From the NCBI GenBank assembly GCA_964016885.1, contig OZ024740.1, forward strand, positions 248,372,001 through 248,436,000: DNA of 64,000 bases. The letters are read 5' to 3'. The translations under genes were made by a program, and so were the position numbers. Positions 21,173 through 60,724 of the stretch are shown here, one piece after another; position 1 is the first letter of the stretch, and each line of letters starts with the position of its first letter. The DNA is from Eledone cirrhosa. Taxonomy: Eukaryota. The notes under the pieces are model-generated. The model did no database searches and was not told where the DNA came from. It saw nothing but the letters and a program-made list of their open reading frames with translations.

Positions 21173-24134
21173 GATTTTGAGTTTATGTTGGTTGTATACC
21201 AACACCTCAGTATGCAGGCTGGAGCACTCGACGAAGTGCGCAGGTTGGTTTGGTTACTCCGGAGTAGTGTAAAATAAAGTTAAATAAAAGTCAAATGATT
21301 AAAATTTAGCTTCGTTTATTACTGCTATATATATTTCAGTGACAGCCATCTTTGGCTGTGACCTCTTCAGGCAGTTTGAATTAGTATGGTATAGACAAGT
21401 ACATATGTTGTTTAGGTGTATGATATTGTCAATACTCTGATATGCCCAGTTCCTTGTTGGGTTGTTAATTCACTGGGGAACTGGAGTCATATGAATTCAA
21501 ACAAACGAATTTTAGTGTCACAGGTCCCCTTCTCCTCTCATTGGTCAGTTATTAGTGTTGTCATTGTTGGAGTTAGCTTAAAAATTGATAAAATGGTAGA
21601 AGGGACAAGGTGTTGAAGGAACAAAATATCAAAAAATGTGTCAAACTTCCCATTGTTCAGTTCTGAGAGCATTCCTCAGTCAGAAGTCTATAGAATTCTT
21701 TCTGGGGTGAGGCTCCCTGTAGTGTTTATGCCTGCTATTGTTCAGTACATTTGACCTCCACCATTATTTTGGTACTGTTGTTGTTGTAGTGGTCAGCTTA
21801 TATCTTGCTGCTGCTAACAATTTAGAAGTATTCAGTTTGTGTTTTCTCTTCATCCCACCCGCCACCATCGTAGTGGTGGTGGCGGGGGGGGGGGGGGTTA
21901 TTTCATGTATATGAAGAAATATAAGGCAATAAATGAAGAAAACAGAAGATAAATAAATAATATAATAAAATAAAATAATTAATATAATTTGTGTAATTTG
22001 AAAATAAATAAATAAATAGAGAATAAAGAATAAAGAGTAAATGAGAGATTGGTGAAAAAGTAATGATAATGTATATGGAGAAGTGAGAAATAATGTAGGA
22101 TAAAGTGTGTGTGTGTGTGTGCTATAACCAATCTCAAGGTCAGAATATGTTGGATAGATTGGTATGATACAAGATGTTAAGATGAGATATTCAATGTGTT
22201 TGTGTTATAATCTATCTCAACTTAAAATAAATATAAATATAAGGTTATACAGTGAAGAGGGCAGAAAACAAATAACAAATTAATATAGAGAAATCAAGAT
22301 TTAAGATTGGAACTTTAAAGTCAGAAATCTGGTAAATTAAAAGTGTTTGTGTTATAGATGTTGGCCAGATTATTATGGCTGTGTCCGATTCTGTCTCTAG
22401 GCTATCATGGTGTCTGCTCCGCCTGGGTTGTTCCCTATGGCTTGAGGGGAGTTCACAACCTAGGGTGTTGTAATTGTCCATATAGCTTGAGGGAGGTCTG
22501 GCCGAGAGATGTTTTCATGTTCTGTAGAAGTCCCTATAGCTTGAGGGGAGTTCACATCTTCTTGTGTTGCTACTGTCCATATATTTTGAGAAAGGTCCCG
22601 GCTCTAAGGTGTCTGCATGGAAGCTTAAGCTGGACAGGACCCCATACTCTCTGGCCTGGTACATAATCAGGAAAGTACCACCCGATAAAGGGGGATCTTG
22701 CATATGCAAACTATGCCTGAACGAGACCCTCGAGATACTAAGAGGTGGAAGCGGCCTGATAAACCTCAGAACCGACTTCTTCGGGACATGCAGACACCTT
22801 AGAGCCGGGACCTTTCTCAAAATATATGGACACTAGCAACACAAGAAGATGTGAACTCCCCTCAAGCTATAGGGACTTCTACAGAACATGAAAACATCTC
22901 TCGGCCAGACCTCCCTCAAGCTATATGGGCAATTACAACACCCTAGGTTGTGAACTCCCCTCAAGCCATAGGGAACAACCCAGGCGGAGCAGACACCATG
23001 ATAGCCTAGAGACAGAATCGGACACAGCCATAATAATCTGGCCAACATCTATAACACAAACACTTTTAATTTACCAGATTTCTGACTTTAAAGTTCCAAT
23101 CTTAAATCTTGATTTCTCTATATTAATTTGTTATTTGTTTTCTGCCCTCTTCACTGTATAACCTTATATTTATATTTATTTTAAGTTGAGATAGATTATA
23201 ACACAAACACATTGAATATCTCATCTTAACATCTTGTATCATACCAATCTATCCAACATATTCTGACCTTGAGATTGGTTATAGCACACACACACACACA
23301 CTTTATCCTACATTATTTCTCACTTCTCCATATACATTATCATTACTTTTTCACCAATCTCTCATTTACTCTTTATTCTTTATTCTCTATTTATTTATTT
23401 ATTTTCAAATTACACAAATTATATTAATTATTTTATTTTATTATATTATTTATTTATCTTCTGTTTTCTTCATTTATTGCCTTATATTTCTTCATATACA
23501 TGAAATAACCCCCCCCCCCCGCCACCACCACTACGATGGTGGCGGGTGGGATGAAGAGAAAACACAAACTGAATACTTCTAAATTGTTAGCAGCAGCAAG
23601 ATATAAGCTGACCACTACAACAACAACAGTACCAAAATAATGGTGGAGGTCAAATGTACTGAACAATAGCAGGCATAAACACTACAGGGAGCCTCACCCC
23701 AGAAAGAATTCTATAGACTTCTGACTGAGGAATGCTCTCAGAACTGAACAATGGGAAGTTTGACACATTTTTTGATATTTTGTTCCTTCAACACCTTGTC
23801 CCTTCTACCATTTTATCAATTTTTAAGCTAACTCCAACAATGACAACACTAATAACTGACCAATGAGAGGAGAAGGGGACCTGTGACACTAAAATTCGTT
23901 TGTTTGAATTCATATGACTCCAGTTCCCCAGTGAATTAACAACCCAACAAGGAACTGGGCATATCAGAGTATTGACAATATCATACACCTAAACAACATA
24001 TGTACTTGTCTATACCATACTAATTCAAACTGCCTGAAGAGGTCACAGCCAAAGATGGCTGTCACTGAAATATATATAGCAGTAATAAACGAAGCTAAAT
24101 TTTAATCATTTGACTTTTATTTAACTTTATTTTA
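21173..24134 (+). mobile_element. Fold-back Penelope-like element: ~1350 bp near-perfect arms (21270-22619 / 22787-24134) around a 167 bp spacer
   Basis: The arms are reverse complements (mirror ORFs 21416/23788 and 22245/22925). The centre encodes a GIY-YIG C-terminal remnant YSLAWYII...CKLCLNE...INLRTDFFGTCRH. (TA)n on both sides. Confidence 0.92.
24029..24083 (+). ncRNA. Type I hammerhead ribozyme (mirror copy 21321-21375 on minus)
   Basis: actgc-CTGAAGA-ggtcacagcc/ggctgtcact-GAAA-tatatata-gcagt, followed by AATAAA. Confidence 0.85.
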
Positions 24135-24329
24135 TATATATATATATATATATATATATATATATATATATATATATATATATATATATATATATATATA
24201 TATATATATCATTTTTTCCGTATATATATATATATATATATACGGAAAAAATGAAACGAAATTTCATTTCTCACTCTTAGTACGGCTGTTACTTAAATAT
24301 AAGTATGTATACGTACATACATATATGTA

Positions 24330-27300
24330 CTAGACATGAAAAATGCGCAAGCTCAAAAGTGCCACAGAATGTTATAATAAACCTTCAAAAGTGTGGGACT
24401 AGAGTTGTTGCTAAAAAATATTGTAATCATTATATATCGTACATTCTGTGGCATCCTTTATAAAAATAGCTTAAACCAACGAAGCCTTTATTTTTACGCT
24501 ATTTCACTTAGTTAATTCTTAGAGTGTAACATATAAAAATATGATTTACAACTATAAAATAAATTAATTAATATAATAACAGAGCTGCGGAGCTGAAATT
24601 TAGGAAATAATGGAGTATCGGATCCTGAGTTGGAGCCAGTCAATTTTTGGCCGACTCCGCAGCCCTGTATAATACATTTCATATTAAAGTTATTAATAAA
24701 CCTATTTTACACTGCATGCAAATTACCATGAGATCATGCTATTAGATATAAGATACAGCCGAATATCTACATCTGTAAAAGTACGAAAGCGAAGTAATGA
24801 TAAGTGGCTTAAGGTAATTCCAATATGAAAGTTTGTAGTGATAAAAATTTGATAATGCAATACGATTGTTAATATTATAGTTCTATGAAAATGTAACAAT
24901 AGATAACTAAATTATTTTACTATTAGTATATTTAAGAAATTATCATTATAGATTTGATCGTTCATATAAGCATCATATTAATTTTCAAGACAATTATTTT
25001 GTTACTATGAGTATATGATAATAATATTACGTAATTATTTTTAGCTGTTATTACATTAAACATAGATGTATTTATTTTTATATGTTACACTCTAAGAATT
25101 AACTAAGTGAAATAGCGTAAAAATAAAGGCTTCGTTGGTTTAAGCTATTTTTATAAAGGATGCCACAGAATGTACGATATATAATGATTACAATATTTTT
25201 TAGCAATAACTCTAGTCCCACACTTTTGAAGGTTTATTATAACATTCTGTGGCACTTTTGAGCTTGCGCATTTTTCATGTCTAGTTTAATATTTTTTTAA
25301 GGCAACGCTTGTAATAACTCTAGTTAAACAGGATATATATTAATAATAAATTATCGTTGTAATGTAATTAGATTATGTAATTGTTATTATAAATTATCTT
25401 ATAAATATTAGTGTAAGATGTATAAAAATATTTTCAGACTTTTAATATAAACAACTACAAAAAACAATCAATATTAAATCAATATATTATACATAATAGA
25501 AAACATAAAATAAACAATACAAAAACAAAATATTTACATACAATTGCAATTATCAGTGTATATACATTTTCTTTATATTCCCTGAGCAAATTAATAAGAT
25601 TTGTTTTTATTGTACATAATTTGATGACTTGTTGGAGTGTATTAAAAGATAGCAACAATTTGTGATTAAATTGTTATCTTAAGCAACTCACTTTTTAATA
25701 GTTGTTGGCTGAGCGAAATTGTAAAAGCCTATGAGCAAATATAAAAAAAAATACACAAACAACATTTCCTTGTGTTATTACAACATTAGATAAAATAATT
25801 GAGCAATGTCGTTATATTTTGCTCTTATTGCACATTAATAGTGTTTCTATTTTTCGGCACAAATCCATTACGGCAGTCCATTACTGGTACTTTATTTTAT
25901 CGAATTAGTAAGTATGAAAGTCGAAGTTAACCTCGGCAGGATTTGAACTTAGAATGCAAAGGACCATAACAATACTGCAAAGCATGGTGTCTGACGCTCT
26001 ACCAATACTTGTGTTGAGCTGGTCATTAATTTATGGTGGTCGTGCGTGGAGTAGAGCAATCGCTAGTTGAAATATTATGAACAAAACATTTTTATTTGCC
26101 GAAGAACATATTTTCAATACTGTTTGTGAATGTGACGAAGGAAATACATTCTGATATGGAACAGTGTACAAAGTGTGTCTGTGAATAACATAATGTTACC
26201 TCATGTTGTTGTCAAGACATAATGGATTTCGTATATCCAGTTAGAAGATGAAACCTAGCCATCTCGGATTAGTTATATTTCATGCCATGTGTTTGAGGAT
26301 AGCAAAATATGCGTGTTTCTTGTCTGGAAACTTTCTGCTAAACTGATTGGTTTCGTTTTTGGCACTATACAATACTTATCCAACAGATAACTGTATTGGA
26401 TCCTTGATTGGTTAATATTTAGGTGAGGGTGCTTGATGCAGAGTTAGTGCAAAATGGATCAATGAGTGTAATAATAATAATGATAATAATAATGAAAATA
26501 TTGTGTACAATGCTGAGGTGCACTACAACTCATCAAAAGTGCATATATAATACATAGGGTAATATAAAAACGTCAGGAAAAAAGAACAGTGCATGAGTCA
26601 TGATATACACATATGTGCATGTGTATGGAAGGGGGACATCAGGTGTAGTTTTGGTGTATTTCGGAATGTATGATGGTTTTAAAGGATGCAGTGTGTCATC
26701 AGCTAACAACTGATGCAGGAAGTTTGTTCCATCCTTCAGCAACTCTGAGCATGAAGAAATATTTCCTAAAGTCATGGGAGCTGTGTTGTTTTCTGACTTT
26801 GTAGGCATGTCCACGTGTTAGACACATGGAGATCAAAAAGGTGTTCGGGGTTGTTGTTGGTCGGATGGTTAATAACTTTGTGGGTGTTTACCAAGTCCAT
26901 TGCCAGAGGGAAGCAAAATATTCAGGGTATGGTAGGTGTCTGATGGAGGGTATGCGCTTGGTTGCATGTCTCTGAACAGTTTCCAGGAGGTCAATGTTCT
27001 GAGCAAGATAGGGGTTCCTGCAACACCAAGACCCAATTCACAAGTGCAGCGTTGCTCATTCACATCGGCAGTGGGGACACCAAAATCAGTGACAGGTCTC
27101 GATTCACTCGCGAGATACATCACAGCTACACTATATATTTAAACATATATACAGTGATACCTCGCTACTTGGCGGTTCAACTATCCCGGATTCACGATTT
27201 CGCGCATTTTTAGAATATATATATGAACACCTAAAATTTTTCATTAAATCCATTAAAATATTAATAATAAACACAGTTCTAATCATACGCTATATATATA

Positions 27301-60578: not shown

Positions 60579-60586
60579 ATATATAT

Positions 60587-60724
60587 ATAGGAAAATGTTT
60601 AACCCCGACGGCAGAGCTCTGCCGTCGGGGTTAAACATTTTCCTATTACCCACTCTACTACCCTAAGTATTGAGTACTCTGGTGCGTTATGGTCCATCTG
60701 GTTCCTTACCACACTTCCTTCGTT
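60587..60724. mobile_element. Perfect hairpin plus terminal extension of the 54503 PLE family
   Basis: Palindrome centred on gagctc. 60621-60724 is the reverse complement of ~54503-54607. Confidence 0.85.

Follow-up and report, generated by a model that had tools for sequence, protein, structure and literature searches.

Why do fold-back elements inserted in (TA)n repeats so often continue on one side only, and what is the structured motif that they carry there? This question is raised by a 64,000-nt stretch of the Eledone cirrhosa genome (contig OZ024740.1, positions 248,372,001 to 248,436,000 of the forward strand; hereafter the window), in which an earlier note had seen, in most fold-backs, a single arm running on through a hairpin, AGCACTC and GAGTA to a (TA)n junction. 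Penelope-like elements (PLEs) are the sister group of telomerase. In the available text of three studies (PMC8557442, PMC11167929, PMC3846280), the origin of their inverted pseudo-long terminal repeats (pLTRs) and one-sided tail is an open question. Here, we report that the extension is the canonical PLE tail, that a bulged helix within it covaries across families and is usually doubled in intact copies, and that insertion ends fall a few bases from one helix or the other. This suggests that the helix probably serves as an RNA handle for the reverse transcriptase (RT).

Since the predicted hammerhead cores in the arms run in the sense of the open reading frame (ORF), the strand on which the motif had been described is antisense to both ORF and hammerhead. 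Read in element sense, a hammerhead core is followed after about 50 nt by the end of the pLTR, and then come RCUC-Y[stem-loop]R-UH-GAGY-RCU, a spacer and (TA)n; the conserved unit is a helix of about 25 nt with a 2-nt bulge, and its inner stem-loop varies from about 10 to 70 nt. We examined covariation in 32 cluster representatives from the animal's own genome (G000, 3.0 Gb), including some mis-anchored rows, and found that 106 of 160 variable pair cells were Watson-Crick, compared to a mean of 60 and a maximum of 82 in 10,000 shuffles. The first inner pair formed in 26 of the 32 rows with a 2-nt bulge (21/24 in well-anchored rows only) and in 1-7 rows in other registers. An alignment from 197 homologous protein matches was then used to fetch 78 metagenome loci; their 49 clusters, analysed with no pairing filter, had 135/196 Watson-Crick cells over four positions (shuffle mean 66, maximum 93), and the first inner pair was Watson-Crick in 48 of 49 (30 C-G, 18 U-A), only with the 2-nt bulge. 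In both shuffle tests, relatedness was handled by clustering only, with no tree. The outer pair alternates between A-U (GAGU) and G-C (GAGC), often between the two motif copies of a single element. In summary, the bulged helix covaries across families, above the shuffle maximum, both in G000 and in the metagenome relatives.

The architecture as it was first described holds for the RCUC/GAGY helix but not for the hairpin upstream of it, which is not clade-wide. In G000, this hairpin folds modestly (mean z -1.4, 3/10 below -2), and as a conserved element outside this genome it was rejected, the metagenome relatives giving a mean z of 0.13 (1/15 below -2). Likewise, the motif does lie downstream of the hammerhead, but its association with AATAAA is weak (13/46 clusters in sense, 4 in antisense).

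We then examined where the extension lies in ORF-bearing copies. In a set of 20 loci, picked for long open frames from 93 scored ORF matches, the extension was internal and direct, between the upstream pLTR and the ATG, in 13. It is thus the canonical PLE tail, the head of the 5′-UTR, and not a new part: it lies after the upstream pLTR and at one end only, although at 81-167 nt in the window it is longer than the canonical 30-40 bp. The internal copies run on, directly past the point where terminal tails stop, into a second motif copy (M2), with the ATG 13-62 nt further, so that the order is pLTR, short TA tract, first copy (M1), spacer, short TA tract, M2 and ATG. This M1-spacer-M2-ATG order was found in the families of L058, L133, L123, L114, L122, L143, L182, L183, L186 and others; the helix is usually doubled in intact copies. 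The position of M2 beyond the end of the tail, which the earlier note had missed, accounts for the one-sided tail. Among the 32 metagenome relatives with enough 5′ sequence, 16 had two copies, 6 had one and 10 had none. Over the metagenome loci, the motif was also enriched outside the ORF and sense-biased, with 46 instances in 13.9 kb of 5′ windows, 22 in 28.6 kb 3′ of the ORF and 17 in 150 kb of ORF, against 6, 4 and 5 in antisense. An independent SINE was rejected as the source of the extension because many families have it inside their ORF-bearing elements, with family-specific spacers that continue into each family's own ORF. The alternative that the extensions are known PLE tails lacking conserved structure is right about the tail but not about the structure, as the tail holds the covarying helix.

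To place the insertion ends, 12 internal copies served as references for 171 queried sequences (170 loci and the window), the loci being mostly motif-selected and possibly including some duplicates. The 228 alignment ends comprised 139 clean (TA)n junctions, 41 read-throughs and 48 ends without a clean junction. As many as 136/139 clean junctions lay within 20 nt of a motif (65 at M1, 71 at M2) and three lay elsewhere; none was a terminal copy running past M2 into (TA)n. The modal microhomology between junction and repeat was 2-5 nt in the larger families. M1 offsets were anchored on the junction of the partner arm and not on pairing (158 instances examined, 112 with junction evidence, 108 anchored), and in 72/108 the first T of (TA)n lay 6-8 nt 5′ of RCTC. 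In the metagenomes, TA was found at -6 in 24/48 instances, and terminal copies in L228 and L234 stop in (TA)n short of M2 by 9 and 6 nt. Outward-facing end pairs of the same family combined one proximal and one distal end in 63/67 cases. Finally, each of the 14 ORF-selected insertions with both ends visible had exactly one tail, on the left in 10 and on the right in 4 (by eye), an end being missing in the other 6 of the 20 loci.

The motif is abundant. In the window, AG[CT]ACTC-N5-40-GAGT, a pattern fixed post hoc, occurs 8 times, where a Markov background (2 × 100 simulations) gave 0.95-1.15 expected and a maximum of 4. In G000, 67,871 matches to AGYACTCRAY-N5-34-GAGTA compare with 718 to the reversed control. 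A compensatory variant, AGYGCTC...GAGC, has 23,606 matches, compared to 497 for its own reversed control. A wider-spaced double pattern and the GAGCACTC double pattern matched mostly satellites and were left out of the counts. One such array, at G000:C1:14,233,500-14,254,300 (L151-L180, L202-L218), consists of hundreds of head-to-tail copies of a 58-bp unit in which a short TA tract is combined with the motif and some of the tail sequence found in the 54497/60590 family. Two scans of viral contigs gave one weak, unrelated-looking match and nothing, respectively.

On their sequence features, the fold-backs with the motif are Hydra-clade PLEs inserted in (TA)n, a clade of C-terminal endonuclease (EN)-containing PLEs described by Craig et al. 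2021 (PMC8557442, cited throughout, like the other papers, from the parts of its text that are available). The copy L064 has a single open frame of 751 aa (about 732 from the ATG) with YRDD and a C-terminal VY...YVG region. A profile match to 64 homologues had a probability of 100. The CxCX5C linker is present as CNCRNKSNC in 41808-43166, 49877-50989, L058 and L064, and SDKT is present, with RWR in the 40896 family. The EN of L064 has no CCHH but reads CDLC..EE...N..FSCCRH, that is, CxxC and CxH around a conserved E and N (by eye). A regular expression found predicted type I hammerhead cores in both arms of four window elements and none in the other five; Rfam did not call these window cores, and a Pfam search with six PLE ORF fragments matched no family. 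The elements in the window are as follows.

21173-21269, minus strand: tail of the fold-back element 21173-24134, M1 at 21223-21265; internal family copies run on into M2 and the ATG (L143).
21270-24134, no strand assigned: inverted arms (pLTR) 21270-22619 and 22787-24134, hammerhead cores at 21370 (minus) and 24034 (plus); the right end is tail-less in (TA)n.
38167-38333, minus strand: long tail with an M1 variant (38252-38327) that has a long inner loop and the 3′ flank CAS, not RCU; arms 38336-38446 and 39058-39169.
40896-40986, minus strand: tail, M1 at 40957-40979.
40987-45393, plus strand: Hydra-type PLE, inverted arm 40987-41799, direct arm 44557-45393, 5′-truncated RT/EN ORF at about 41808-43516, hammerhead cores at 41083 (minus) and 45297 (plus).
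45870-45959, minus strand: tail, M1 at 45925-45952; family M2 and ATG in L114, L127 and L201.
45960-48370, plus strand: Hydra-type PLE remnant, arms 45960-46075 and 48255-48370, ORF piece 46237-47151, hammerhead cores at 46059 (minus) and 48271 (plus).
48405-48497, minus strand: tail, M1 at 48468-48490; family M2 in L123.
48498-52472, plus strand: Hydra-type PLE remnant, arms 48498-48860 and 52110-52472, ORF piece 49877-50989 with CxCx5C linker and GIY-YIG region, hammerhead cores at 48597 (minus) and 52373 (plus).
54152-54486, minus strand: stub with tail 54152-54235, M1 at 54205-54232 and palindromic arms 54236-54486.
54497-54583, minus strand: tail at the 3′ (direct) end of a minus-strand element, M1 at 54549-54575.
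54609-57770, minus strand: Hydra-type PLE with a broken ORF from about 57010 to 55263, arms 54609-55274 and 57105-57770.
57073-57097, minus strand: M2, the only one in the window and unnoticed before, 62 nt upstream of the ATG at 57010; same site in L122 and L141.
57878-57936, plus strand: M1 (57878-57900) and tail into (TA)n.
59983-60113, minus strand: tail with a degenerate M1 variant at about 60040-60106; partner end at about 60577.
60590-60724, plus strand: stub with a 54-nt palindrome (60590-60643), M1 at 60652-60678 and tail to (TA)n.

The letters that had been reported for these tails are all present: AGCACTC at 21223, 40957, 45925, 48468 and 54205, AGTACTC at 54549, opposite-strand copies at about 57894 and 60672, (G)GAGTA at 21261, 38323, 40975, 45948, 48486, 54229, 54564 and 60102, and the five named upstream hairpins (21186, 40915, 45884, 48424, 54169). 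Several descriptions needed adjustment. The extensions, said to be 75-160 nt, measure about 81-167 nt, and the partner arm, said to stop near GAGTA in five cases, does so within 3-8 nt in eight elements but lies 33 nt away at 54609. The ACTC/GAGT pairing stands, except that at 54549 the family-level partner is GAGT at 54572-54575 and not GAGTA at 54564. The bodies are not all dissimilar: 40896/48405 are related (82% over 241 nt), as are 54497/60614 (93%), and so they are not independent examples. Of the two GGAGTA sites noted just before an arm, that at 38323 does belong to a helix in the 38167 element, with a different flank, and that at 60102 lies in a family holding a degenerate variant. 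Fold-backs in the window were mapped by self-BLAST, and not all one-sided extensions carry the motif: 9070/10090, 10190/10745 and 24329/25285 extend without it, into or beside (TA)n. They probably belong to further PLE clades or to non-autonomous families, in which another signal marks the ends.

Other features lie near these elements. Immediately left of the 21173 tail is a decayed Hydra-type PLE ORF (19866-21133, minus strand). Related ends at 57797-57845 and 58049-58098 are opposed tail to tail over a (TA)(TG) microsatellite and are not a fold-back. Further hammerhead-like cores, outside the elements studied, are found at 52647 (minus), 59825 (plus) and 62006 (minus). Elsewhere in the window are a broken Helitron-like Rep/PIF1 helicase ORF (about 1770-7850, plus strand; PIF1 E 6.9e-22) with a protease-like frame downstream, and non-LTR retrotransposon remnants at 11186-17995 (minus) and 31338-34352 (plus), the latter with an endonuclease-like frame and RVT_1. 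Imperfect (TA)n arrays of 2.6 and 2.9 kb (28177-30748 and 34411-37284) border a LINE and an assembly gap (30750-30949).

Lying a few bases past both end sites, the helix likely tells the RT where to start copying. We consider it probable, from the sequence comparisons above, that the covarying bulged helix, present twice before the ORF and 6-8 nt beyond both end sites, acts as an RNA handle that positions the RT, and the earlier reading of a conserved covarying cis element at the element ends is still best understood as defining the RT start. In such a mechanism, the ORF protein, likely as two copies, would bind both motif copies of an RNA that is either circular or made by read-through, and its GIY-YIG domain would cut (TA)n. 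Each 3′ end of the break would then form 2-5 base pairs with the UA tract lying immediately 5′ of one of the helices, and so prime cDNA synthesis. The two cDNAs, one longer by the tail, would be joined head to head after 5′ truncation, which would give an inverted repeat whose tail is one-sided; M2 would lie outside the distal cDNA and hence be absent from terminal tails. This position of M2 is the main argument that the helix would act on the template strand. It is complemented by analogy with the PLE Poseidon_Ac (PAc; Frangieh et al. 2024, PMC11167929), which cleaves and extends both target strands, starts reverse transcription at two internal sites bracketing the tail, requires the RNA 3′ of these sites and is predicted to form a dimer. 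The stronger proposal of a programmed double priming, in which a protein dimer on two copies of a 25-nt RNA handle would use both ends of a single (TA)n cut as primers at UA tracts at a fixed distance, like a telomerase-like module used twice, is more tentative, and we hold it somewhat less likely to be true than false. A linear, hammerhead-cut RNA as the template was rejected, as 0/53 arm starts lay within 5 nt of the predicted cleavage site, all being 5′ of it, although BLAST may miss 49-nt arms.

Several observations speak against a role of the helix in positioning the RT. As many as 36/108 M1 offsets fall outside 6-8 nt, and the 48 further ends have no clean TA junction. Two end pairs have two tails (L079, L144), the remaining 2/67 are doubtful tail-less pairs 15 bp apart, and tail-less pairs are under-sampled because most loci were motif-selected. 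The 38167 and 59983 families, with degenerate motif variants, still end in a similar register, and in the 260 nt before the ORF match 10/32 metagenome relatives have no motif and 6 have a single one. Wobble counts do not favour the RNA strand either, with 6 G-U against 7 A-C in G000 and 11 against 7 in the metagenomes. A genome-wide asymmetry (G.U 14,418, control 933; A.C 3,298, control 2,749) was rejected as a strand test because many G.U matches are GCTC nested in the ACTC helix, and a family-level recount was flat. Lastly, the RNA runs yielded small-share contigs only, with no expression or strand evidence.

The same geometry is predicted if the motif is read as DNA, as a hairpin in single-stranded cDNA or as extruded donor DNA, by the GIY-YIG EN, which would resolve a longer intermediate by cutting at the TA 6-8 nt from the motif, with the RT starting further downstream. 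The lack of strand preference in the wobble test and the similarity of the junction TA to the target site agree with this, and so does the literature, since Craig et al. ascribe the tail to EN-mediated resolution (PMC8557442) and the tail of the D. virilis element is needed for EN recognition, as recounted in PMC11167929. However, the variable and covarying inner stem-loops speak against a plain duplex site, the genomic tail ends of PAc coincide with measured RT start sites (PMC11167929), and none of the 139 junctions showed a terminal copy past M2, so that we regard recognition as DNA as unlikely. Less likely still, in our view, is that the helix guides RNA processing, that is, cleavage or 3′-end formation a few nt 5′, by itself or via a protein, with the RT starting at the resulting 3′ ends. 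The fixed distance of the ends 5′ of the helix would fit, and catalysis or protein binding could be the role of the unpaired UH bulge and the RCU flank, both of which are conserved, but one and the same transcript, once cut at M1, could not provide the distal start as well. In addition, Rfam gave no ribozyme match (sub-threshold microsatellite matches only in the window, none in 7 metagenome loci), and about 25 nt with a 2-nt bulge is unlike minimal ribozymes of the twister-sister-like kind, whose internal loops have 5 and 6 nt in the available text of PMC11620745.

It could also be that the motif is a 5′-UTR element regulating translation or transcription, as its place 13-62 nt before the ATG might suggest, and that ends fall nearby only through microhomology with TA tracts. 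This we consider very improbable: the AT-rich pLTRs contain many TA tracts, at which ends hardly ever fall (3/139 ends elsewhere), the TA lies at a fixed distance across families, and the rule of one end of each kind would be left unexplained. Positioning of the RT on the RNA therefore remains our preferred reading.

Whichever way it is read, a twice-repeated covarying element at a fixed distance to both ends is a sequence-level rule that is open to a direct mutational test. The motif can also help to annotate where tens of thousands of insertions in G000 end, and to spot non-autonomous passengers. If the double-priming module were true, it would be portable, so that an RNA of any kind, if it carried the module, could be copied into TA microsatellites from both sides.

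Compared to the published Hydra clade (PMC8557442), the elements share a single ORF of about 730 aa, DKT, YRDD, the CxCx5C linker, a C-terminal GIY-YIG with CxxC and CxH, a type I hammerhead in the pLTR, (TA)n insertion, an inverted 5′-truncated copy and a one-sided tail. They differ in their tails (about 80-165 nt, compared to 30-40) and, in the 40896 family, in RWR instead of RWK. Neither the twin bulged helix nor its fixed distance to the ends is mentioned in the available text of that paper, but by eye 3/6 of its Hydra consensus sequences contain the motif: Hydra-1_Ajap has two copies ahead of the ATG, and Hydra-2_Amil and Hydra-2_Ajap have one each at the 3′ end. Metazoan non-LTR retrozymes (PMC7229834, 10.64898/2026.07.22.740005) are likewise short, hammerhead-bearing, PLE-derived repeats, but the stubs in the window are not tandem monomers; they are fold-backs that share a tail with ORF-bearing families, and the available retrozyme texts do not describe the motif. 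More broadly, no description of it was found in the available parts of the literature, including PMC8557442, PMC11167929, PMC4209133, PMC3846280, PMC7229834, PMC11620745, PMC13282606, 10.1101/2025.10.16.682844 and 10.64898/2026.07.22.740005, while supplementary material, both that of bioRxiv papers and that made up of figures alone (PMC11167929 Fig. S2C, one page of PMC8557442), may be relevant to it. What is apparently new is the twin bulged hairpin at a fixed distance to both ends, whereas the clade, the tail and the fold-back arrangement had been described before.

The properties of PAc given above, namely two tail-bracketing RT starts, extension of both strands, the need for RNA 3′ of the starts and a predicted dimer, correspond to what is here proposed from sequence. 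PAc differs in belonging to another clade. Its start sites fall inside the ORF, at an AC-rich stem-loop, and are said to share no homology with the DNA that is cut (PMC11167929), and its RNA as drawn in Fig. S1 of that paper has, by eye, no RCUC/GAGYRCU. The same supplementary figure has ACAAC twice, about 36 nt apart and near the tail length (by eye), a hint that start motifs may be duplicated across PLEs in general. Finally, in telomerase RNA and the DRT10 ncRNA (10.1101/2025.10.16.682844), a helix at a fixed distance from a primer-alignment segment also positions a TERT-related RT. In those RNAs, the helix is 5′ of the template and stops copying, whereas in the Hydra-type elements the alignment tract has the helix on its 3′ side, and each of the two helices per RNA would set a start. 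The likeness is drawn at the level of function only.

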